Part shown: positions 32,646 through 62,690 of the stretch, piece after piece | Position numbering within the stretch: the stretch's first letter is position 1 | Layout: every line of letters begins with the position of its first letter | DNA from: Candidatus Pyrohabitans jungbluthii | GTDB taxonomy: Archaea > Hydrothermarchaeota > Hydrothermarchaeia > Hydrothermarchaeales > BMS3B | Assembly (NCBI GenBank): GCA_002010065.2 | Contig: MTMD02000008.1 | Span: 32,001-96,000 of the forward strand | Reading direction: 5' to 3' | Length of the DNA stretch: 64,000 nucleotides | The notes under the pieces: model-generated | The model's input: the letters and a program-made list of their open reading frames with translations, nothing else | Told to the model about the DNA's origin: nothing | Database searches by the model: none | Translations under genes and position numbers: made by a program

Positions 32646-33109
32646 AGCACAGCGTGGGCATAGGGGAGTACAGGGTAGTTAGGCCGCCTGCGGTACTTGT
32701 AAGCTTGGGCTTAGGCTCCTGTGTGGGCGTGGCTCTTTACGACCCGGAGAGGAAGATCGGCGGTCTGGCTCACGTCATGCTCCCATCCAGCAATGGTACT
32801 GAGAAAATTACAAACCCTGGGAAGTACGCCGACCAGGCGATAAAGCTGATGCTGGAGGAGATGATTAAACGTGGCGCTTCCAAGAGCAGAATAGTAGCGA
32901 AAATCGCCGGCGGAGCGACGATGTTCAAAAACTCCAAAAACTCCATAGGCGAGAGAAACGTTGAAAGTGTTAGAGAAATACTGAAAAAAGAAGGTATAAA
33001 AATAGTAGGTGAAGATACAGGAAAAAATTATGGAAGGAGCGTTGAATTCGATACAGAAACTGGCTTATTACATGTCAGAAGCTTTAAATATGGTGAAACT
33101 GTCCTTTAA
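32642..33109 (+). CDS. cheD: Chemoreceptor glutamine deamidase CheD
   Basis: GLGSCVG, AHVMLP, KIAGGA.MF and IGERN motifs. Confidence 0.95.
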   Translation: MKHSVGIGEYRVVRPPAVLVSLGLGSCVGVALYDPERKIGGLAHVMLPSSNGTEKITNPGKYADQAIKLMLEEMIKRGASKSRIVAKIAGGATMFKNSKNSIGERNVESVREILKKEGIKIVGEDTGKNYGRSVEFDTETGLLHVRSFKYGETVL

Positions 33110-33126
33110 TCAGGAGATGATTTGGC

Positions 33127-33945
33127 TTGTCCGGACAGAATAGGTTTTTTGAGTATGCTGGCGACTTTAAAAAGCTTCTCGATGAGATATCAAGAAATAC
33201 TGGTCTGAACTTGGTGGGATACCGGGATTCCTATCTCAAGCGCAGAATCGGAGTGAGAATAAAAGCAAATCGCCTCAAGTCCTATGATGAATATATTGAG
33301 TTTCTCAGGAAAAATCCCTCAGAATATGACAAACTCCTTGACAGACTCACAGTAAACGTAACAGAGTTCTTTCGCAATCCCAGCACCTTCGAAGCTTTCA
33401 GGTCAAAGGTGCTACCTGAACTATCCTCCAAGAGGGAGATAAGGATATGGAGTGCCGGATGTGCCTCCGGGGAAGAGCCCTATTCCATCGCCATAACTGT
33501 TTCTGAGTTTTTTGGGAGAGAGCTTGAAAGGCGTTTTATAAGAATATATGCCACAGATATAGATGGTTTGAGCTTAAGAAGGGCTATTAAAGGAGAATAC
33601 GAAGCTAAGAAGGTGGCTAATGTTGATAGTGATATGTTAAATAAGTATTTTATTAAGACTGGTGAGAAATATATGGTTAAACCAGAAATAAAAAGGATGG
33701 TAATCTTTGAGAAGCAGGACATTCTGAAGAGAAGGTGGATTAATTTCTTTGATGTGGTCTTCTGCAGGAATGTAGCCATCTATTTTTCCCGTGATTCCTT
33801 AGAAATTCTCTACGGAAATTTGTACGATTCCCTGCGCAAAGGTGGCTATCTCATTACCGGAAAGGTGGAATCGCTTGCCGGCGATATAAAAAGCCACTTT
33901 GAGGTGGTGGATAACAGAGAGCACATCTACAGAGCCTTAAAGTGA
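33127..33945 (+). CDS. cheR: Chemotaxis methyltransferase CheR
   Basis: TVNVTEFFR, WSAGCASGEEPYS and CRNV.IYF motifs. Confidence 0.95.
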   Translation: MSGQNRFFEYAGDFKKLLDEISRNTGLNLVGYRDSYLKRRIGVRIKANRLKSYDEYIEFLRKNPSEYDKLLDRLTVNVTEFFRNPSTFEAFRSKVLPELSSKREIRIWSAGCASGEEPYSIAITVSEFFGRELERRFIRIYATDIDGLSLRRAIKGEYEAKKVANVDSDMLNKYFIKTGEKYMVKPEIKRMVIFEKQDILKRRWINFFDVVFCRNVAIYFSRDSLEILYGNLYDSLRKGGYLITGKVESLAGDIKSHFEVVDNREHIYRALK

Positions 33946-33983
33946 GCCGCTCTTTCCAAGCCGGAGAAAGGAGCATCTACACA

Positions 33984-35297
33984 TTATTTGGCCAGTTCTT
34001 TAAGTATCCTTCTAACCTTTAAAACTATATCCTGTGGATTTTTGCCGAGAAGCCTTATCATAGGTTCCTTCCCCACTGCACCTTCATCATAGATGGCGTC
34101 TGGAAGCTCACCGTGATCCTCTATCGCCTTAAGTGTGCCCCACTCCATGGTACTAACTCCAGGTGGCTCATCATCTCTTGAAAAACTGGCAACCTTAAGT
34201 CCTGTCTCTTCTACCGCCTTTAGCGTCTCAGGGGAATACCTTATGTTTATAGCCGACCTTACGCTTGGGTGTTTGCGTGAAGCTGCGAGCAGAACCCTTG
34301 AGACGTGCTGGGAGGCTGCAAAACCAACGCAACCCGCAATTACAGCTCTACCACCAGCCTTTACTATCCTTCCTCTTATCCCAGCTACATCCTCTGCACC
34401 TTTCGGATTCGGAAGAGAGTAAACAAAGTTTATCCCCACCTCAGGTATCAATCTTTGGAAACCCGGGAGATTCACTACCTCCTCCACAGCCGCTTCTAAA
34501 TCCACAAGCACAGCATGCCTCATCGCTTCCCTTTCTATATTGATGAGCTGATTAAGAATTCGTGCACCCTTTCCTGGAGAATAAGAATACCTTATTGCGT
34601 CTGCAATATATTCCTTAGCCTTCTCTACAGCTTCCTTCAGCTCAAGCCCCTTTGCAAGGTATGCAGTTATAGCTGCGGAATAGGTACACCCAGTCCCATG
34701 ATATCTACCCTTATAGTACTCTGATGAGAACTCGTAAAATTCGCCTTCATGATAGAGTACGTCTACACCCCTGAGATGCCCGCCCTTTACAAGCACAGCC
34801 TTAGTATTTTCTGCAATCCTCAAAGCCGCTTCCCTCGCATCCTCAAGAGAGCGAATTTTTATCCCTGAGAGCACCTCCGCCTCATGTATATTGGGGGTAA
34901 CCAGCGCAGCTTTAGGCAGAAGGTGCTTTTTAAGGGCTTCAACCGCACTGCTCTCCTGCAATTTATCTCCAGATGTGGCCACCATTACAGGGTCAACCAC
35001 AAGGGGGTAATCGCCCACGTTATTAGCCACGAGCTTTATTATTTCCTCTGTGGCGAGCATTCCAGTCTTCGCAGTAGCTATCTCAAAGTCAGCGTGCACA
35101 GCTTCCATTTGCCTTTTAATAAAGCTCTGTGGAAGGTTGTGCACGCCCTCTACGCCCTGTGTATTTTGTGCTGTTACAGAGGTTATTACACTGACCCCAT
35201 GCACCCCAAGAGCGGCGAAGGTTTTGAGGTCTGCCTGAATCCCTGCCCCACCGCCACTATCTGCGCCTGCAATTGTCAGACATGTAACCTTTTTCAT
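33984..35297 (-). CDS. thiD: Bifunctional HMP/HMP-P kinase - thiamine-phosphate synthase (ThiD-ThiN fusion)
   Basis: AG.DSGGGAGIQAD, TPN..EA and HGTGC, then the ThiN domain (LIPEVG.N, GKEPMIR). Confidence 0.93.
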   Translation of the reverse strand: MKKVTCLTIAGADSGGGAGIQADLKTFAALGVHGVSVITSVTAQNTQGVEGVHNLPQSFIKRQMEAVHADFEIATAKTGMLATEEIIKLVANNVGDYPLVVDPVMVATSGDKLQESSAVEALKKHLLPKAALVTPNIHEAEVLSGIKIRSLEDAREAALRIAENTKAVLVKGGHLRGVDVLYHEGEFYEFSSEYYKGRYHGTGCTYSAAITAYLAKGLELKEAVEKAKEYIADAIRYSYSPGKGARILNQLINIEREAMRHAVLVDLEAAVEEVVNLPGFQRLIPEVGINFVYSLPNPKGAEDVAGIRGRIVKAGGRAVIAGCVGFAASQHVSRVLLAASRKHPSVRSAINIRYSPETLKAVEETGLKVASFSRDDEPPGVSTMEWGTLKAIEDHGELPDAIYDEGAVGKEPMIRLLGKNPQDIVLKVRRILKELAK

Positions 35298-35334
35298 AAC
35301 TCCACCTCTTAACCTGTTGCATTTTTAATTATTA

Positions 35335-35388
35335 AAACAATTTTGTAAATTTCAATTTTGTTTTATGGTATAAAAGATTATTGTAAAA
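35335..35388 (-). repeat. Left cluster of TTTACAAWAWTNTTT repeats (2 copies)
   Basis: Minus-strand TTTACAAAATTGTTT (35335-35349) and TTTACAATAATCTTT (35373-35387), upstream of the wHTH gene's TATA box. Confidence 0.55.
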
Positions 35389-35448
35389 GTAGAAAAGTTT
35401 ATATATCATGAAAAATATATAATACAAGGTATAATGAGGTGGTAAGAA

Positions 35449-35979
35449 ATGGAAGAATTGTTTTTACAAAAAAAGCCAAAAGAGATACTATTTTATCTTA
35501 AAAATCAGACCTCTGCAAATATATCGGAAATCGCGGTTAAAACGAACTCTACATATGCACATTCATTTAATTTGGTAAAGGAGCTAGAGGATCTTGGAAT
35601 AATAATAACAAAAAAGAGAGGGAGGTCAAAGGTTGTAACCCTCACAGAAAAAGGTAGAGAACTTGCTACTCTGCTGGAAGAATTCATCGAGGTGTTGAGA
35701 AGCAAGAAAACCACGTCGCGACGCAGAAAGAGGCATGAGTCAGCTAAAAAAACACCTATCAGTGCTTCGGATAGATTGACTAAATACTATGAAAATTTGA
35801 AGAAAATTTCGGAAAACATAAAAAGCGGTGATATCGACTCACAAAAGTCAAAAATTAAGAGGGTTGTTGGAAGATACCGGCAAATTATAAAGAAGATGAG
35901 GCCCAGAGATGAGAAAGGAAGACAGCTCAGGAAAGCTGCACTGATGGAAATAGAATCCATTTTAAAGAATTTGTCGTGA
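35449..35979 (+). CDS. Winged-helix DNA-binding protein with basic helical C-terminal extension
   Basis: NISEIAVKTNSTYAHSFNLVKELEDLGII...RGRSKVVTLTEKG; GAGGTGG RBS. Confidence 0.82.
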   Translation: MEELFLQKKPKEILFYLKNQTSANISEIAVKTNSTYAHSFNLVKELEDLGIIITKKRGRSKVVTLTEKGRELATLLEEFIEVLRSKKTTSRRRKRHESAKKTPISASDRLTKYYENLKKISENIKSGDIDSQKSKIKRVVGRYRQIIKKMRPRDEKGRQLRKAALMEIESILKNLS

Positions 35980-36027
35980 TTAACATAAGGGAAAGATATA
36001 TATCAGCAATATTTTGAAAATATAACC

Positions 36028-36888
36028 ATGGCCAGAGTGAAAAAGAGAAGCAAAGATGAAAATGTGAAAAAAGTTGCAATATATGTTAGAGTTTCCACTG
36101 AAGACCAAGCAAAAGAAGGTTTCTCGCTAAATGCGCAGCTTGAAAGGCTGCGCAGCTACTGCTCTGCGAGGGGGTGGAAAATTTACAAGGAGTACGTTGA
36201 TGACGGATATTCAGGCAGGTACACCAACAGACCTGCGTATCAGAAGATGCTTGAAGAGATGGACAACTGGGATGTGCTCCTCGTTTTGAAAATGGACAGA
36301 ATTCACAGGAATTCAAGAAATTTCATGGAGATGATGGAACTTCTTAATGAAAACAACAAAGAATTTGTGAGCATGACTGAAAGTCTTGACACCAGCACTG
36401 CAATGGGGCGTTTTGTTATGGACATTATACAGCGCATTGCCCAGCTGGAAAGTGAGCAGATTGGTGAGAGAGTGTACACCGGAATGGAGCAGAAGGCACG
36501 CACACCGGCGGAGCAGCTTGGCCAGGGGAGGCATCCCTACCTAGGGTTTGCCCATCCGTACGGCTACCATTATTCAAATGGAAAGCTCATAGTCAACCCA
36601 AAGGAGGCGAAGTACGTTAGGTTCATCTTTCACGAATATGTAAAGGGAAAGACTCTCGACGAGATATGCAGACAGCTCAATGAGATGGGAGTCCCTACAA
36701 AGAAAGGAGGAAAATGGGCAAAATATACGATTTCAAAGATTTTAAAAAATCCGATTTATGCAGGATATCTCGAATGGAACGGAATTATTAAAAAGAACAA
36801 CCACGAAGCGATAATTGACAAAGAAACATACAATAAAGCACAAAAGATAATTGAGAGTCGAGGGGGTACACCGGTATATATACCCTAG
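36028..36888 (+). CDS. Serine recombinase (resolvase catalytic domain + recombinase domain, no zinc-ribbon/coiled-coil)
   Basis: YVRVSTEDQ (catalytic Ser), DDGYSG, RP, DRIHR, PYGY, ILKNPIYAG and HEAII motifs; ends at 286 aa. Confidence 0.92.
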   Translation: MARVKKRSKDENVKKVAIYVRVSTEDQAKEGFSLNAQLERLRSYCSARGWKIYKEYVDDGYSGRYTNRPAYQKMLEEMDNWDVLLVLKMDRIHRNSRNFMEMMELLNENNKEFVSMTESLDTSTAMGRFVMDIIQRIAQLESEQIGERVYTGMEQKARTPAEQLGQGRHPYLGFAHPYGYHYSNGKLIVNPKEAKYVRFIFHEYVKGKTLDEICRQLNEMGVPTKKGGKWAKYTISKILKNPIYAGYLEWNGIIKKNNHEAIIDKETYNKAQKIIESRGGTPVYIP

Positions 36889-36900
36889 CTCTTAGTCCCG

Positions 36901-36926
36901 GTAAACAACGGTAGACCGTCGTTTAC
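36901..36926. terminator. Hairpin between the converging recombinase gene and the putative ncRNA
   Basis: GTAAAC-A-ACGG-TAGA-CCGT-C-GTTTAC, followed by an AT-rich run. Confidence 0.4.
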
Positions 36927-36939
36927 GTATATATAAATA

Positions 36940-37292
36940 AAACTGTACTGCACAAGCCCCGTATTATCCTACGAGTATTTCACCAAGTTTTGAGTGAAGT
37001 TTTAAACCCAGGATATAGGAACTCACAGTTAATGGAATAGAGAAGATCATGTTTCAAATGGTCCGTCATAACCTCAGCACAAATTTCGCAGAGGAATAAC
37101 TTGGCATAAGTTGGCGTCAAAACCTACAGTTTGTAAATTTTGTACTGTGAATCGAGAGACCCTAGTGACTGGCTGCTCTGGAGCGGTCCCGGAAGACCGC
37201 GTGATTTGCCCTGAGAGCGATTTTTTCACATCAGGGAAGGGTAACGTACCCGGAAAACTGCAGCAATTAAAAATTTTCCCTTTTAGGGTCAA
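36940..37292 (-). ncRNA. Putative novel ~350-nt multi-domain structured RNA
   Basis: Nested helices whose G-U wobbles work only on the minus strand, a TATA box ~26 nt upstream and a T-rich tract downstream (details in findings). Confidence 0.55.
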
Positions 37293-37315
37293 TATCCAGT
37301 GGCCTCTGTAGACTG

Positions 37316-37325
37316 TTTATATATA
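37316..37325 (-). promoter_or_regulatory. TATA box for the minus-strand RNA
   Basis: TATATATAAA preceded by purine-rich AAGACAAAAAC (BRE-like). Confidence 0.55.
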
Positions 37326-37570
37326 GTTTTTGTCTTGCTATATAGCAAGTATTGAGGGCGTACTAGCTTGTTGTTAAAGAAGGAGCTGCTAGATTCAGTG
37401 CACAGGAAGCCAGATCTGCGATGCCAATAATGGGCAAGTAAAATCCACAGAGATATACCCGTGAAGTATGGGAGTGGGTTGAGAAGAACAGCGGTGAGGA
37501 GAGAGACAACCACAACGTAAGCGCTCTTCCGCAGCCTATCTCCAATGTCATACGCCTTACACCATCTTTT

Positions 37571-37700
37571 ATTACAATAATGTTTACAAAGTGAAACAAT
37601 TTTTGTAAAAGGTTTCTACCTAATTATATGTTATATAATATATTTTTTACAATATATTTTTAAGCTAAGAACGATGAAATGTTTTACAATAATGTTTGCA
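37571..37700. repeat. Right cluster of TTTACAAWAWTGTTT-like repeats around an AT-rich core
   Basis: ATTACAATAATGTTT (37571), inverted TTTACAAAAATTGTTT (37594-37609), TTTACAATATATTTT (37646) and TTTACAATAATGTTT (37683). Confidence 0.6.
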
Positions 37701-37772
37701 AAATAATGAATATACAGGGAAGAGGTAACAAAAAACTATTGCCTCGGTAAAGATTGGTGATTTAGAAACTCT

Positions 37773-37856
37773 GCCGGGGTAGCCTAGCCCGGAAAGGCGC
37801 CAGACTCGAGATCTGGTGCTCGCAAGAGCTCAGGGGTTCAAATCCCTTCCCCGGCG
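37773..37856 (+). tRNA. tRNA-Ser(CGA)
   Basis: GCCGGGG/CCCCGGC acceptor stem, anticodon arm CCAGA-CTCGAGA-TCTGG, long variable arm GCTC-GCAA-GAGC and GTTCAAATC T-loop; CCA not encoded. Confidence 0.96.
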
Positions 37857-37941
37857 CTATAATAATGTTTGCATTATACTCTAGGGTAATGTATGCACCA
37901 CTTTTTTATATTCCCTCACCTCAATAAGTAGCGGTGATTGT

Positions 37942-38961
37942 GTGCAGCTGTTAAGCTGGGGAAAGCGATTAATTCTAAACCCCATATACTGGCCTAGCGC
38001 TGCGTCGCTTGCGAGCTTTATAGCACTTATAATATCTGGAATAGCACTGGGCTTCTGGTATGAACCTCACCCAAGCGTCGCCTATGAGAGCATAATATAC
38101 ATTGGAGATTATGTCGCCTTTGGACAGCTAATGTTGAGTGTACATCACTACGCCACCGATGTGCTGATAGCCTCAACCCTCTTGCATCTTATAAGAGTTT
38201 TCTTCATGGGCACTTACAAGGGCAAACTTTACGCCTGGACTGAAGGAAGCTATCTCATCTCCAAGCTCCAGCGCATTCATACCGAGGTAACAGAATTAAA
38301 ACTCGGCAATGCCTGGATAAGTGGCGTGGTGCTTCTTCTGATAACCGTGCTATTCCTCTTCTCCGGCTACCTGCTGCGCTGGGATGAGATAGGCTACTAC
38401 AGTATCCAGATAACCACCTCAATAGTCGCTTACACTCCAGTCATCGGCGACACCCTTCGCAGCCTGATTCTCGGCGGTAGTGAGATAACATCGCGCAGCC
38501 TGGCTAGGTTTTACATCGCCCATGCCATACTTCTCCCCCTCCTCTACCTTCTCTTCCTCGGACTTCATTACTATTACATAAAAAAAGCACGCTTCTACTG
38601 GCTTGAGGTAGGGGTGGGTAGTGTAACTTTGGGCTTTCTTCTGCTGGTGAGTGTTCTTAGTCCCTTTGGACTCGCTGCAAAACCATCTGCAGAGCTTACC
38701 GTGAGCCTAAAGCCACCGTGGCTATTTTTATGGCTCTATGTAATAGAGCGCGGCGTTGGATACATCTCGCCCCGCTTCAACTTTGTGAACATCCTGCTCC
38801 TTCTGAGCATACTCACCCTCCTGTTCCTGGTACCTTACATAGACTCGGGTGAAGAAAAACCTGAAACTAAGAAGAAACGAACCATTGTAGGCATCGCCAG
38901 CCTGACCTTTTTCATACTTCTCTCCATCATCGGCTACCTCTGGGAGGCATCCTCACCCTGA
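37942..38961 (+). CDS. Cytochrome b/b6-family protein (N- and C-terminal domains fused)
   Basis: Four heme His residues (SVHHY, LLHL, AHAI, GLHY), GYLL.WD, ..RFY..H, and KPPWLF at the PEWY position. Confidence 0.85.
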   Translation: MQLLSWGKRLILNPIYWPSAASLASFIALIISGIALGFWYEPHPSVAYESIIYIGDYVAFGQLMLSVHHYATDVLIASTLLHLIRVFFMGTYKGKLYAWTEGSYLISKLQRIHTEVTELKLGNAWISGVVLLLITVLFLFSGYLLRWDEIGYYSIQITTSIVAYTPVIGDTLRSLILGGSEITSRSLARFYIAHAILLPLLYLLFLGLHYYYIKKARFYWLEVGVGSVTLGFLLLVSVLSPFGLAAKPSAELTVSLKPPWLFLWLYVIERGVGYISPRFNFVNILLLLSILTLLFLVPYIDSGEEKPETKKKRTIVGIASLTFFILLSIIGYLWEASSP

Positions 38962-39125
38962 AGATACTCTCTGATTATGGCGATGCCAATCCCAACCAGT
39001 ACAAGACCCAGAAAGAAAGCGAAATAGTCCTCCCAGGTGTAAACCTTAACCCCACCTTCATTCTCCATGGCAAATGCTAGAGGGAGTGAGAAAACAAAAG
39101 CCAGCAGCGACAGCGTATTTTTCAT
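38934..39125 (-). CDS. Small membrane protein (signal peptide + one TM)
   Basis: MKNTLSLLAFVFSLPLAFA...YFAFFLGLVLVGIGIAII; directly downstream of the cytochrome c gene. Confidence 0.55.
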   Translation of the reverse strand: MKNTLSLLAFVFSLPLAFAMENEGGVKVYTWEDYFAFFLGLVLVGIGIAIIREYLQGEDASQR

Positions 39126-39157
39126 AAAATAAAAAAAGAAAGCAGAGTTTTTAAATT

Positions 39158-39526
39158 TTACTGCATTATAGCAGGAAGCTCGTGGCACTTCGTGCAGGTC
39201 GTCTGGATATCGTGGCACTCACTGCAGAAGTTCTTGTGCCCTTCAAACTTCTCAAACGCCTGCTTGTGCAAGCCTGTGCGCATGTCCGCTAAGGCAGGAG
39301 CGTCGTGACACTGATCGCACTTGCCTTCGCCGTGAAGCGCTACCTCTTCATAACCAGGAGCAGCTTCCTCTACAGTCTCCTTGGGTGCCTCTGTTGCTGG
39401 AGGCTGTGTAGCGGCAGGAGCCTCTGTAGCAGGCGCAGGAGCCTTGGTCTCGCCTCCACCACCGGTGCAGCCAGCAAAGGCAAGCACCAACAGTAGTATC
39501 CCTGCAGCAATCACAAACCGTCTCAT
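39158..39526 (-). CDS. Triheme c-type cytochrome lipoprotein
   Basis: Lipobox FAGC, Ala/Pro/Thr linker, CDQCH, CSECH and CTKCH; GGAGG RBS. Confidence 0.85.
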   Translation of the reverse strand: MRRFVIAAGILLLVLAFAGCTGGGGETKAPAPATEAPAATQPPATEAPKETVEEAAPGYEEVALHGEGKCDQCHDAPALADMRTGLHKQAFEKFEGHKNFCSECHDIQTTCTKCHELPAIMQ

Positions 39527-39697
39527 GTTTTCTCCTCCTTAAGTTTCCGTTCCATCATGACTACTTTCAATATAAATAAGTTTCGTGTAGATTCCGTATC
39601 TGTAGAGAACGAATATTTTTCGCTAGGCGCGTGTTGTACCACAAGCCATACCTATCCACAAACTTTATATAGAAGTTCAAAAACATAGGTAAAGGAA

Positions 39698-39718
39698 AAA
39701 GTTACTTAATGTAACTTT
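39698..39718. promoter_or_regulatory. 8-5-8 palindrome downstream of the thermosome TATA box (candidate heat-shock operator)
   Basis: AAAGTTAC-TTAAT-GTAACTTT; TATA TTTATATA at 39664-39671. Confidence 0.5.
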
Positions 39719-39744
39719 AACCCTTTGAAAATGGAGGTGAATAA

Positions 39745-41397
39745 ATGGTAGCACAGCTAGGTGGACAGCCAGTTTTAATACTCTCTGACAAGGCGCAGAG
39801 AACCTATGGCAGAGATGCGCAGCGCAGCAATATACTTGCGGCGCGCATAATCGCCGAGATAGTGAAATCAACGCTGGGTCCAAGAGGAATGGACAAGATG
39901 CTCGTGGACAGCATAGGCGACGTCGTGGTTACCAACGATGGTGTAACCATACTCAAAGAGATGGAGGTCGAGCATCCCGCTGCGAAGATGATGGTCGAAG
40001 TGGCGAAGACGCAGGAGGATGAGGTTGGCGACGGCACTACCACGAGCGTTGTAATTGCCGGCGAGCTTCTCAAAAAGGCTGAGGAGCTTTTAGACCAGGA
40101 TGTTCATCCCACAGTTATCGCCAAGGGCTACCGCATGGCGGCTGAGAAGGCAGAGGAAATCCTGAATAGCATGGCTGTGGATATCGACATAAGCGATGAC
40201 GAACTTTTGAAGAAGGTTGCATCCACGGCGATGACCGGCAAGGGTGCCGAGAAGGCTAAGGATTACCTGGCAGAGCTGGTTGTTAAGGCAGTTAAAGCTG
40301 TTGCCGAAGAGATGAATGGTGAGATAAGCATCGACGCGGACCACATTAAGATTGAGAAGAAGGTCGGCGGAGGAATAGAGGATACCCAGCTGATACAGGG
40401 CGTTATTATCGACAAGGAACGCGTACATCCAGGAATGCCGCGCAAAGTTAAAGATGCCAAGATAGCACTCATAAATGCTCCGATTGAGATTGAGAAGACA
40501 GAGTTCGACGCAGAGATACGCATAACCGATCCGAACCAGCTTCAGGCTTTTCTCGACGAGGAGGAGCGCATGCTCCGCGATATGGTGGAGAAGGTTAAAG
40601 CGAGCGGAGCCAATGTGCTCTTCTGCCAGAAGGGTATAGACGACCTGGCGCAGCACTTCCTTGCCAAAGAGGGGATCTTTGCTGTGCGCAGGGTGAAGAA
40701 GAGCGACATGGAGAAGCTCTCCCGCGCCACAGGGGCGAGGATAGTGACCAGCATAGACGACCTCAGCAGCGACGACCTTGGCTATGCAGGCGTAGTGGAA
40801 GAGGTTAAGATCGGCGACGACGAGATGGTGTTTGTGCGCGAGTGCCGCGATCCTAAGTCGGTGAGCATCCTCATCCGCGGTGGCAGTGAGCACATAACCA
40901 GTGAGGTTGAGCGCGCCATAGAGGACTGCCTTGGCGTTGTGCCGGCTGCGATTAGGGACAAGAAGATAGTGCCCGGCGGAGGCGCGCCAGAGATAGAGGT
41001 GGCGAGCAAGCTGCGCGACTACGCTAAAACTGTAGGCGGGAGAGAGCAGCTCGCAATAGAAGCCTTTGCCGATGCTCTTGAAGTCATACCACGCGCCCTC
41101 GCTGAGAACGCTGGCCTTGACCCAATAGACATGCTGGTCGACCTGCGCTCAAGACATGAGAAGGAAGGGCCAAACTACGGACTCAATGTTTACAAGGGCG
41201 AGGCTGTGGACATGTTAAAGGAGGGCGTGGTTGAGCCTCTCCGCGTCAAAACCCAGGCGATTGCCAGCGCCAGCGAGGTTGCTGTGATGATTCTGCGCAT
41301 CGATGACGTCATCGCTGCCAAGGGGCTGAGCAAAGAAGAGGCAGGCGGAGAAGGCGGAGAGATGGGTGGCATGGGCGGCGGCATGCCCATGATGTAA
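39745..41397 (+). CDS. ths: Thermosome (group II chaperonin) subunit
   Basis: [24 protein letters not shown] and GGM-rich tail. Confidence 0.97.
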
Positions 41398-61146: not shown

Positions 61147-61866
61147 ATGAAAAAAATCTTCGGTGAGGCAGCTTGCATAATCGGGGATGCTCTAGTAGTG
61201 GCTGATCTCCACATGGGGGTGGAGAATGAACTACGAAGCCAGGGTTTAAGGGTGCCCTCCCAGAGGGTAAATATGGAAAGAAGGCTGCTTGACCTCATCG
61301 AGAAAACGAATGTCAAGAGGGTTGTGATCCTAGGCGACCTGAAGCACAGTATACCAAAAGCGAGCTGGCAGGAGTACGCCGAGGTTCCGCAGCTTATTCA
61401 TGCTCTTGAAGCTAGGGCAGAGTTGGTTGTGGTGAAGGGGAACCACGACGCCAGCATAGAGAGGCTGCTCCCCTCCACTGAGGTGGTGGACAGCCTTGTG
61501 ATAGGCGACGTGCTGCTGGTGCACGGGCACATGCGTGCGAAGAGCTTGGACTTCACGCGAATAGTGCTGGCACACAATCACCCGGCGGTGGAGTTTGTGG
61601 ACGAGCTTGGTGGAAGGATGCGTGAAAAGGTCTGGCTGGAGCTGGAGTTCAGAGAGGAGGCGCTACTAAAGCTTGGTTTGGAAAGGAGTCCCCGCATAAC
61701 TGTGATGCCCGCCTTTAATGAGCTTATTGAGGGCGTGCCATTTAACAACGTGACTCAGGGTCAAGGACCGCTGCTGAGGGAAGAGCTGGTGGACTTAGGG
61801 GAGGCGAGAGCTTACCTCCTGGACGGCACGGAGCTTGGCAAACTGAAGGAGCTTGCACAACTTTAG
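61147..61866 (+). CDS. Calcineurin-like metallophosphoesterase
   Basis: DLHMG, GDLKH, GNHD, HGH, HNHP and MPAFN motifs. Confidence 0.9.
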   Translation: MKKIFGEAACIIGDALVVADLHMGVENELRSQGLRVPSQRVNMERRLLDLIEKTNVKRVVILGDLKHSIPKASWQEYAEVPQLIHALEARAELVVVKGNHDASIERLLPSTEVVDSLVIGDVLLVHGHMRAKSLDFTRIVLAHNHPAVEFVDELGGRMREKVWLELEFREEALLKLGLERSPRITVMPAFNELIEGVPFNNVTQGQGPLLREELVDLGEARAYLLDGTELGKLKELAQL

Positions 61867-62690
61867 TGCACCGCACCAGCGAGGAAGGAGAGCAGGGCGA
61901 TAAACATCGCCACCTTTATATATCTGGCGCTTTTGGCAGGGTCGCGTTTTTTTAATAGTACTGCGAGAGAGTAGAGGAAGATCGCATCTGCGATGCCCAC
62001 AATAGGTAGGTAGAAGACGCCAAGAATATTCATGTGGTAGGGAAGGGGGCTAAGAAGCACAGCAGCTAGTAGGAACGCAGACGCGACGTAAGCGCTCCTC
62101 CGCGTGCCTATCCTCACCGGTAAGGTTCTACACTCACCCCGGTCGCCTCTCAGGTCTGCGATGTCCTTTACAATTTCTCGGGAGGTGTTGGCAAGCGCTG
62201 CGAGAGCGACGAAGATGAGCGTCGCCTTAGGTTGAGACGTGGCAATGCCGCCATAAAGAAAGGGCGAGGCTACGAGGTAGCTAACTGTAAGGTTCTTGCT
62301 CAGCCCGCCAGCGCGCTTTATTCTCCATGCATACGAGTAGAGTAGCGCAGAGTTGAAGGCTGCCAGGAAGAAAGCAGCAGGGCTTATTAGTAGCGCAAGC
62401 GCAATGCCTGAAGCAAAGAGAAGTAACGCGTAGTTCCTCGCCACCCACCTCTGCAGCGCACCTCGAGGGAGCACCCTGTGAGGGGCGTTTATCTTATCTA
62501 TATCATAATCGTAGTAGTCGTTTATCACATTGCCAGCGCCGCACACCATGAAGGCAATAACGCACGCGAGAGCCACGTCAGCGCTGAAGTTGCCAGAGGC
62601 TATGCTTGCCCCGAGAAACACCGCAAAGGCTGCCATTGCACAGTTCACAGGTCTGAGGATTTCTAGATAGGCGCGCATACCACATAACAC
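61863..62690 (-). CDS. Digeranylgeranylglyceryl phosphate synthase (UbiA family)
   Basis: RP.N, NDYYD..ID..N.P.R.LPRG and REIVKD..D..GD motifs. The true start may be ATG 62678. Confidence 0.9.
   Translation of the reverse strand: MLCGMRAYLEILRPVNCAMAAFAVFLGASIASGNFSADVALACVIAFMVCGAGNVINDYYDYDIDKINAPHRVLPRGALQRWVARNYALLLFASGIALALLISPAAFFLAAFNSALLYSYAWRIKRAGGLSKNLTVSYLVASPFLYGGIATSQPKATLIFVALAALANTSREIVKDIADLRGDRGECRTLPVRIGTRRSAYVASAFLLAAVLLSPLPYHMNILGVFYLPIVGIADAIFLYSLAVLLKKRDPAKSARYIKVAMFIALLSFLAGAVH

Follow-up and report, generated by a model that had tools for sequence, protein, structure and literature searches.

Background

Chromosome dimer resolution is thought to depend on tyrosine recombinases of the Xer type. 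Serine resolvases have crossover sites of approximately 26 to 28 bp with a 2-bp core. According to the accessible parts of two papers, most archaea have XerA (PMC5357621, PMC8371274); in those parts the first gives a 2-bp crossover spacing for serine recombinases, places archaeal dif 122 to 180 degrees from oriC and describes some Xer genes as linked to their own dif site (PMC5357621), and the second, a 2021 review, states that archaeal serine recombinases have been seen in transposons and never fully investigated (PMC8371274). Here we describe a locus in a 64,000-nucleotide stretch of the genome of Candidatus Pyrohabitans jungbluthii (the whole stretch analysed, referred to below as the window), in which genes for a winged helix-turn-helix (wHTH) protein and a short serine recombinase lie next to tRNA-Ser(CGA), and in which a conserved 26-bp palindrome follows the recombinase gene. 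The explanation that we favour, and hold tentatively, is a vertically inherited chromosomal resolution module of the Xer/dif kind.

An earlier note on this DNA, prepared from its letters alone, had described two co-oriented genes, a neighbouring tRNA-Ser, one motif clustered at both ends in mostly opposite orientation, and the absence of TnpB, transposase and phage genes. It had also set the recombinase apart from IS607 enzymes and from complete large serine integrases, and had proposed a compact site-specific recombination module built around this short protein. All of these descriptions were borne out by our analyses, the two genes by open reading frames and by Pfam matches that for the wHTH protein stayed under the cut-offs. 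The 26-bp palindrome had been overlooked.

A short relative of the large serine integrases

The recombinase gene (36028-36888, plus strand) encodes 286 amino acids. A catalytic domain (PF00239, E = 3.8e-40, 137.8 bits against a cut-off of 23.3) begins at residue 16 and is followed by the domain named Recombinase (RD; PF07508, E = 1.8e-25). The closest solved relatives were the catalytic domain of TP901-1 (109.5 bits) and the RD of A118, which aligned to residues 176-282. The protein stops 4 to 8 residues past the RD match, where the zinc ribbon and coiled coil of large serine integrases would start, and neither domain was found in it by Pfam or by comparison with solved structures. The phage-integrase profile phrog_95 matched with 337 bits over profile positions 81-362 of 651. 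Judged by its sequence, the recombinase is a truncated relative of the large serine integrases.

Matches to other serine recombinase groups were confined to the catalytic part. The IS607 model NF033518 reached 54.8 bits there, against a cut-off of 110; no MerR-like helix-turn-helix (HTH) precedes the catalytic domain, and the DNA-binding domain is C-terminal. Gin and resolvase also aligned over the catalytic part only, the 286-residue protein having an RD and no C-terminus of the HTH_7 type. PADLOC had no match to the recombinase, and its matches to the wHTH protein were all generic wHTH (CARF-HTH) ones. The recombinase family is large, with 3,792 proteins at E ≤ 1e-20; the best 120 of these 3,792 are 219 to 335 amino acids long, contain only the two Pfam domains and carry generic names only.

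An alignment of 38 sequences was used to assess conservation. Residues Y19, R21, S23, D90, R91 and R94, which we take to be catalytic by analogy with resolvases, were invariant, and this invariance argues for an active enzyme. The motif YxRVSTEDQ was kept, with Y, R, V, S, T and Q invariant, as was KMDRIHRN, in which every position is invariant. Long stretches of the catalytic domain were near-identical across two archaeal classes.

A conserved palindrome behind the recombinase gene

Just past the recombinase stop codon is a 26-bp dyad, GTAAACAACGGT-AG-ACCGTCGTTTAC (36901-36926), with 12-nt arms around an AG core (a 12-2-12 geometry). The site is unique in the window's own genome (G000; 1.99 Mb in 15 contigs, 99.95% complete), where no second site was found even at up to 6 mismatches. 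A scan with a degenerate pattern (up to 2 mismatches) detected one credible site per genome in nine genomes from a first sample of relatives, each within approximately 90 nt of the recombinase 3' end; the reversed pattern, which served as the control, matched one genome, and coreless two-mismatch matches in G008 and in contig C206 of G034 look like chance. The core CGG-TAGN/NCTA-CCG with dyad arms was also present behind the recombinase genes of G012 and of five of 27 Thermoplasmata loci (L041, L042, L043, L050 and L066), in the latter at the end of a tandem recombinase operon. This gives 15 sites, from 10 Hydrothermarchaeota genomes and five Thermoplasmata loci. The palindrome starts right behind the recombinase stop codon or overlaps it.

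All 30 half-sites of these 15 sites have CCG at positions 3-5 and A at position 12, and 26 of the 30 have T at position 10; the central dinucleotide is AG/CT in 14 sites. Positions 6-7 are variable and often asymmetric, a pattern more in keeping with recognition by a protein than with an RNA stem. In the accessible part of a description of the A118 integrase complex, the RD reaches base pairs 10-11 through a helix, and the zinc-ribbon motif is located at base pairs 16-24 in attP and 11-19 in attB (PMC3783163). Such conservation, like the 12-2-12 geometry, suits a dimeric serine recombinase with an RD and without a zinc ribbon. On the strength of this conservation the palindrome is a good candidate, and probably the correct one, for the recombinase's own binding and crossover site. 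Close relatives (G033 and G034; L041 and L043) do not agree in the orientation of the AG core with respect to the recombinase gene, so the site cannot rely on a fixed orientation towards a neighbouring element.

Reversal of the AG core with the arm sequence kept was observed between L026 and L027 as well as between L041 and L043. Loop flipping by template switching in the palindrome may account for it, or it may be a trace of recombinase action.

The locus could also encode a conserved host protein with some other job, such as rearrangement with a partner site that has diverged strongly, or DNA binding or regulation only, with the palindrome acting as a terminator, a hairpin or an autoregulatory operator. 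The palindrome is always at the operon 3' end, a terminator-like place; most Thermoplasmata loci have other palindromes, or none, behind their genes; and the module is missing from approximately seven good genomes of the phylum that also lack XerA. We nevertheless consider such a role rather unlikely. The catalytic residues are invariant in all 38 sequences, two classes share the asymmetric AG core, the inner CCG and the A at position 12, and a search of G000 allowing up to 6 mismatches gave no second site. The middle of the arms also accepts mismatches by which an RNA stem would be weakened, for example two adjacent ones in G033, and to our knowledge archaeal termination needs no hairpins.

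Conservation and inheritance of the module

The recombinase gene is single-copy in G000, whose nearest named relatives are metagenome-assembled genomes (MAGs) labelled Hydrothermarchaeota or Methanobacteriota. Orthologues (E ≤ 1e-40) were found in 10 of 21 genomes of the phylum with at least 90% completeness, and a looser sample of relatives gave some recombinase match in 27 of 41 genomes. Recombinase identity is 85% in the genus, 75 to 78% in the sister genus and 63 to 69% in other families. Thermosome identity follows the same order (88 to 89% in the genus, mostly 69 to 79% elsewhere), and the recombinase is better conserved than its neighbours ThiDN (62 to 65%) and cytochrome b (76%).

Gene order is also maintained. 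The wHTH gene (35449-35979, plus strand) stands beside the recombinase gene in 16 of 20 loci from a first sample of relatives, as confirmed with a family hidden Markov model, and often runs a few bases into it; in G014, G016, G019 and G022 the genes either overlap or adjoin directly. This operon-like pair recurs in many families of the phylum, as a rule upstream of tRNA-Ser(CGA). The tRNA-Ser(CGA) gene (37773-37857, plus strand; Rfam 56.9 bits) adjoins the recombinase in 10 of 16 extended loci, the window not counted. To the left of the module is thiDN, a thiamine gene (33984-35297, minus strand), and to the right a cytochrome b gene (37942-38961, plus strand); both flanks are the same in G003 as in G000, and ThiDN is also found in G002, G005 and G007. 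All eight wHTH-bearing loci that reach the tRNA have the wHTH gene, recombinase gene and tRNA-Ser in identical orientation.

A minimal integrative or mobile element beside tRNA-Ser, one of the roles suggested in the earlier note, would be in keeping with the adjoining tRNA, with a composition AT-richer than the flanks, with the relationship to phage integrases (phrog_95) and with the tRNA-Ser region of G004, which seems to have gained an island (a 3' tRNA fragment beside a katG-like gene). However, the gene is single-copy, its ThiDN and cytochrome b flanks are shared by G003 and ThiDN by three further genomes, its divergence tracks that of the thermosome, and in one Thermoplasmata order the family is near-universal amid housekeeping genes. 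Relative to the tRNA the module is on the 5' side, and no direct repeat derived from the tRNA flanks it. No transposase, TnpB or phage gene was present between 35.3 and 37.9 kb, no empty ThiDN-tRNA-Ser junction with an att scar was found in a close relative, and no circular junction was found. An integrative element is the least likely of the explanations we considered, and highly improbable; the locus is very probably a conserved, vertically inherited chromosomal module and not a mobile element.

Several of the related loci differ in their surroundings. In G004, a sister species with 96% thermosome identity, a gene for a 730-residue katG-like protein that is absent from G000 is followed by a 3' fragment of tRNA-Ser of approximately 23 nt, a post-tRNA copy of the 17-nt motif described below and the cytochrome b gene. 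This arrangement (L085, contig C5, approximately 187-2690) looks like an island inserted at tRNA-Ser(CGA). The thiDN-bearing contig of G004 ends exactly at the wHTH start, and many related MAG contigs end in or beside the module (L005, L014, L019, L024, L030, L036, L069 and L087). Such breaks could reflect population heterogeneity or AT-rich repeats.

Many relatives have a second gene behind the recombinase gene (L024, 2977-3807; L030, 6786-7448; L047, 4820-5548; L033, 6338-7063 and 5578-6252). In some of them it encodes an N-terminus resembling a zinc finger (CxxC...CxxC) and an RD, with no catalytic domain. G005 and G007 have the RD and the Resolvase domain encoded by two genes, and the palindrome that lies between these is a different one.

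Distribution relative to XerA and position on the chromosome

The Thermoplasmata provided the largest data set for comparison with XerA. In the order holding L057, 97 of 101 genomes retrieved at a completeness of at least 95% have the recombinase, in nearly every case as two tandem genes; the XerA cut-off was reached by only three of the 101, and eight had no tyrosine-recombinase match of any kind. In a count of 196 Thermoplasmata genomes, with XerA called at E ≤ 1e-50, nine had both recombinase and XerA, 106 had the recombinase only, 76 had XerA only (G166, flagged as unpublished, is among these) and five had neither. XerA was absent from 106 of the 115 recombinase-bearing genomes and present in 76 of the 81 recombinase-free ones, and with the curated XerA cut-off three of 73 XerA genomes carry the recombinase. 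The tandem paralogues sit among genes for thermosome, Hsp90, HMG-CoA reductase and RFC. A scan of 2.9 million viral contigs gave six loci with two close relatives, both on contigs of 4 to 5 kb that carry the tandem pair and are thus probably chromosomal fragments.

No XerA was found in G000, in which the only clear tyrosine recombinase reached 87 bits against a cut-off of 220. This 402-residue protein, encoded on contig C6 (approximately 73764-75142; L073, 1243-2451), has a C-terminal zinc ribbon, and its gene lies 96 bp from the 3' end of tRNA-His. We considered it as a divergent XerA and rejected this assignment on its score, its zinc ribbon, its location near tRNA-His and the 0 to 8 copies per genome of its relatives. 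It is probably the integrase of an integrated element.

The position of the gene was examined in ten Thermoplasmata genomes picked for a match far along contig C1, with genome sizes rounded and C1 assumed to be the whole chromosome. In all ten, the recombinase lies at 0.36 to 0.50 of the genome length (approximately 131 to 179 degrees) from the best orc1/cdc6 gene; a second, weaker Cdc6 exists. The orc1 genes of G000 are on contigs C2 and C7. Cumulative GC skew on contig C8 tracks gene orientation, and its local minimum approximately 11 kb from the 26-bp site is uninformative.

The wHTH protein and the 17-nt motif arrays

The wHTH protein has 176 amino acids. Its Pfam matches were weak and all below cut-offs (HTH_45 was best, E = 3.1e-5), and no Pfam or NCBIfam family scored above its cut-off. 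An AlphaFold2 model (pLDDT 82.3) predicts a winged helix at the N-terminus and a long helix, then a basic linker that is disordered and, at the C-terminus, a bundle of three helices. The best PDB folds in a Foldseek search were AF1382, the pNOB8 protein AspA, Sso10a and MarR/PadR, the first 90 or so residues matching the first three with E values of 5e-6 to 1e-4 and TM-scores, normalised to the target, of 0.7 to 0.87. The conserved C-terminal bundle had no match in the PDB fold search. An alignment of 11 orthologues has 18 invariant columns.

Copies of a 17-nt motif, TTACAAWAATGTTTRCA, are clustered at both ends of the module. The left cluster (35332-35386) holds two minus-strand copies, at 35332-35348 (3 mismatches) and 35370-35386 (4 mismatches), and together with a weaker plus-strand partner makes a palindrome (35333-35365). 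Next to it is an AT-rich, TATA-like stretch (35393-35445, plus strand), the 5' leader of the wHTH gene and a putative promoter. On the right, site R1 (37572-37608) consists of two head-to-head copies, plus at 37572 and minus at 37592, around a 3-nt centre, and site R2 (37684-37700, plus strand) is a perfect copy 89 nt upstream of the tRNA. Between them, a TATA-like AT-rich block (37613-37657) is a candidate leftward promoter and forms the right arm of a 45-nt inverted repeat, whose left arm is 35401-35445 (78% complementary). An extra plus-strand copy of the motif stands right behind tRNA-Ser(CGA) (37857-37873). The left-end copies sit on the opposite strand to most of the right-end copies.

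The clustering is specific to this locus. The 13-mer AATAATGTTTRCA has three copies in the whole 1.99-Mb genome, all inside 300 bp of the locus, and a 15-mer with up to 3 mismatches had eight matches in the window, against 2.43 expected, a number reached by one of 100 shuffles. Head-to-head pairs of the motif 20 nt apart occur in genomes of at least four families, and copies lie 30 to 117 nt upstream of the wHTH gene in five relatives (G003, G002, G016, G005 and G007). The position of R1 is kept at approximately -200 from the tRNA in G003, G014 and G019 and is -158 in G016, and that of R2 (-78 to -103) is shared by these four and G002. The AT-rich block AATATATTTTTTAYAATATA between R1 and R2 is conserved in relatives, and inverted pairs resembling the 45-nt repeat were found in L021, L022, L031 and L033. 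Among the genus genomes read, the post-tRNA copy is present in G004 and absent from G003 and G002.

At least three motif matches were found in each of eight wHTH-bearing loci, none or one in three loci of family f8 that lack the wHTH gene, and none in the 27 Thermoplasmata loci. The motif tracks the wHTH gene rather than the recombinase, so the 17-nt repeats are probably wHTH operators, and from this co-occurrence it is reasonably likely that the wHTH protein binds the motif. The 17+3+17 geometry has an odd centre, which makes a role as crossover site unlikely. We also considered a half-site shared between the 17-nt motif and the 26-bp palindrome, both of which contain GTTTAC, and rejected it: this hexamer points inwards in one of them and outwards in the other.

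The motif clusters and the 45-nt inverted repeats (35.33-35.45 and 37.57-37.66 kb) could form an inversion switch that flips the wHTH-recombinase segment, as the earlier note had also suggested. Inverted repeats of 34 to 45 nt flank the module in G000, G003, G002, G016 and G005, and the Hin recombinase gene lies inside its own invertible segment. However, the eight wHTH-bearing loci that reach the tRNA show one orientation, the motif sites have an odd 3-nt centre, and loci that keep the recombinase but lack the wHTH gene also lack the motifs. Sequencing-run evidence came from assembled Logan contigs of four runs, in which starts, ends, strand and rare rearrangements are invisible; uncovered stretches in runs X9 and X10 carry no information. 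The search for runs that hold this DNA gave no RNA run. A 19-kb contig of run X6 spans 34300-37776 in the reference order. The contigs of the four runs, which can miss rare variants, contained no strand-changing joints and no inversion or excision joints such as the earlier note had proposed to look for, only one indel and one diverged stretch. An inversion switch is very improbable on this evidence.

Further near-matches to the 17-nt motif, paired or forming a palindrome, were seen elsewhere in G000, on contigs C6 (36261-36373), C12 (37509-37543) and C10 (27676-27693), and these may be additional wHTH targets. In family f8 a conserved protein of 112 to 115 amino acids with no Pfam match replaces the wHTH protein (L025, 5561-5908; L026, 2555-2893; L027, 7205-7543). 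Its gene is divergent from the recombinase gene and directly upstream of tRNA-Ser(CGA).

The spacer and the composition of the locus

A spacer of approximately 640 bp separates the 26-bp palindrome from the block of repeats and TATA-like sequence in front of the tRNA (200 bp, 37572-37772). The earlier note had placed a converging structured RNA here, and this claim found no support. Rfam at E ≤ 1 over 33000-40000 returned the tRNA and one chance lncRNA match only. Folding of 36886-37772, with only 20 shuffles, gave z-scores of -3.4 for the minus and -0.6 for the plus strand, and was rejected as evidence for an RNA because the stretch is unconserved: in two genomes of the same genus (G002 and G003) the first 50 nt or so and the last 200 nt or so of the intergenic sequence are the only conserved parts, and the central 630 bp or so are not conserved.

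Part of the spacer (37289-37600, minus strand) is a decayed C-terminal fragment of a UbiA-family gene similar to DGGGP synthase. Positions 37414-37540 match 61986-62112 of an intact paralogue with 70% identity (blastn, E = 1.3e-7); that paralogue (61863-62690, 275 amino acids) lies 24 kb from the remnant and approximately 90 nt from tRNA-Gln. The remnant is frameshifted, and its reading frame differs between G000 and the 93%-identical copy in G001. A further 233 bp (36936-37168), with no similarity in G002 or G003, are absent from a strain that is approximately 90% identical, as seen in a contig of run X8 that joins 36935 to 37169. The structured RNA was rejected for want of an Rfam match, for the unconserved spacer, for the UbiA pseudogene fragment and for the 233-bp strain indel. 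We read the spacer between the 26-bp site and the promoter region of the tRNA as junk-tolerant DNA and not as an RNA gene. The co-occurrence that the earlier note had expected among wHTH gene, recombinase, RNA and repeats held in part: the wHTH gene is usually beside the recombinase gene, the RNA is not conserved, and the repeats follow the wHTH gene. The spacer of G002 was seen to hold a fragment of 143 amino acids from a transposase of the rve (DDE) type (L022, 1291-1722), between the palindrome and tRNA-Ser.

Variation of this kind bears on whether the palindrome could be a host docking platform, that is, an attachment site that captures and releases circular DNA in the manner of an integron or an attB site. 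DNA to the right of the site does vary within the genus, from a UbiA remnant in G000 and G001 to an rve fragment in G002, some 400 bp less in G003 and the 233-bp indel in X8, and many MAG contigs end at or in the module. Yet the indel begins 9 nt beyond the site and not at its centre, copies of the half-site are not found at the borders of the variable DNA, this DNA consists of pseudogene and insertion-sequence debris and not of cassettes, and close relatives are nearly absent from viral contigs. We regard a docking platform as improbable.

The earlier note had described the stretch as AT-richer than its flanks. This is correct for the leader, the wHTH gene and the intergenic parts, with a G+C content of 0.29 to 0.38 over 35250-36150 and 0.34 to 0.44 over 36600-37800, against approximately 0.46 to 0.51 in the flanks; it does not extend to the middle of the recombinase gene, which at 0.42 to 0.48 is hardly distinct from them. 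Adjoining the cytochrome b gene is an apparent gene for a small, secreted multi-haem cytochrome c (39158-39526, minus strand) with the CxxCH motifs CDQCH, CSECH and CTKCH.

Proposed function

The earlier note had named three possible roles for the module, and among inversion switch, dimer resolution and minimal integrative element the comparative data favour dimer resolution. We propose this function as a possibility that is still tentative. A dimer of the recombinase would bind the 26-bp site, and two occupied sites on a dimeric or multimeric chromosome would synapse. Since there is one site per chromosome, the partner would be the same site on the sister or concatenated chromosome copy. Four strands would be cut at AG, the subunits would rotate and the ends would be religated, and chromosome dimers and multimers would be converted to monomers, as by XerA/dif in other archaea. 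The wHTH protein would be a dimeric DNA binder of the AspA/Sso10a kind on the motif arrays, where it may autoregulate the operon and control the second promoter-like block between R1 and R2. More speculatively, it could shape the DNA around the crossover site and so favour resolution. In other lineages the second paralogue would regulate expression, and perhaps bias the reaction, in its place.

It is also possible, though again we put this forward with reservation, that short serine recombinases displaced XerA in archaeal lineages, with the adjacent 26-bp AG-core site serving to resolve chromosome dimers and multimers. The lineages concerned might be most of one Thermoplasmata order, further clades of the same class and some of the Hydrothermarchaeota. 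The partners that confer directionality in these FtsK-less organisms would be a second paralogue, a protein combining a zinc finger with an RD, or an AspA-like wHTH protein with operator arrays.

Several observations weigh against dimer resolution. The contigs of the four runs show the reference arrangement plus one indel, and no recombination event was seen in them. The CGG-core palindrome is missing from 20 of the 27 Thermoplasmata loci, two of those having near variants, and in five whole genomes of the Thermoplasmata order in which the recombinase is near-universal, the pattern T-N6-CGGTAGACCG-N6-A (up to 1 mismatch) was no commoner than its reversed control. The palindrome could instead be a hairpin, terminator or operator. 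A simple dyad site also offers no obvious bias for resolution over fusion, and serine resolvases normally require accessory subsites. With regard to chromosomal position, all ten genomes have a second, weaker Cdc6_C gene 54 to 775 kb from the recombinase, at approximately 270 kb or less in nine of them.

The distribution of XerA has its own exceptions. Nine Thermoplasmata genomes possess both enzymes. In the phylum of the window, canonical XerA was found in only one of the 21 genomes of at least 90% completeness (G012), which also has the recombinase, and G022 has the recombinase together with XerA-like genes of 182 to 188 bits. Approximately seven good genomes of the phylum have neither (G008, G009, G013, G015, G017, G035 and G036), so the module is dispensable there or other enzymes serve. 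The complementarity of XerA and recombinase is structured by clade and may represent as few as two or three independent gains or losses.

Comparison with known systems

In the open-access literature that we searched, we found no account of this recombinase family or of a serine-recombinase analogue of Xer. The locus leads to a large, conserved and uncharacterised chromosomal family that is near-universal in one methanogen order and largely exclusive with XerA. Were dimer resolution its function, it would be, as far as our searches show, the first chromosomal serine-recombinase counterpart of Xer/dif, it would explain chromosome separation in archaea without XerA, and the very small serine recombinase with its 26-bp site would be a possible tool for genome engineering. 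Even with another function, a serine recombinase that belongs to the core genome and has a conserved site of its own is an object both new and directly testable.

The wHTH protein shares its winged-helix fold with AspA, Sso10a and AF1382, which are dimeric DNA binders, some of them on palindromic sites. Unlike these, it adds a basic linker and a three-helix bundle, and its putative binding to the 17-nt motif is suggested by co-occurrence only. IS607 TnpA resembles the recombinase in having a serine catalytic domain and in occurring in archaea; it has an N-terminal MerR-like HTH and usually TnpB, whereas the present protein has its DNA-binding domain at the C-terminus, and its gene, a single copy, has no TnpB beside it. 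The small resolvases and invertases (Tn3, Hin, Gin) are proteins of approximately 180 to 200 amino acids with a C-terminal domain of the HTH_7 type, in contrast to the 286 residues and RD found here.

Plasmid and transposon resolvases (Tn3 and gamma-delta with res, Sin, beta with six) offer a closer functional parallel, as they resolve multimers at a site beside their own gene. They differ in carrying a small C-terminal HTH and in needing adjacent accessory subsites or HU-like proteins; the present enzyme has an RD, and the replicon is a chromosome. The only candidate accessory sites here are the wHTH motif arrays, 646 to 1,570 bp away in the window and approximately 250 bp away in G003. The best sequence relatives are the large serine integrases (TP901-1, A118/LI, phiC31, SPbeta). 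Compared with them, the recombinase is without the zinc-ribbon and coiled-coil domains that set attP/attB selectivity and directionality, has no phage or island context, and is associated with one symmetric site and not with an attL/attR pair.

The Xer systems with a single recombinase (XerS/difSL, XerH/difH and archaeal xerA/dif) differ from the module in several respects. Theirs is a tyrosine recombinase and ours a serine recombinase, which can be at most a functional analogue of Xer and not a member; the site is 12-2-12 where that of Xer is 11-6-11; and the function assigned here is an inferred one. The Thermoplasmata, moreover, use two paralogues or a catalytic protein with a zinc-finger-RD partner, and the Hydrothermarchaeota add the wHTH protein. 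In the arrangement of gene and site the two are nonetheless alike. As in these Xer systems, one chromosomal gene is linked to one single-copy dyad site, the gene is a vertically inherited core gene located, in relatives, roughly opposite the presumed origin, and its phyletic pattern is complementary to that of XerA (compare the accessible parts of PMC5357621 and PMC8371274).

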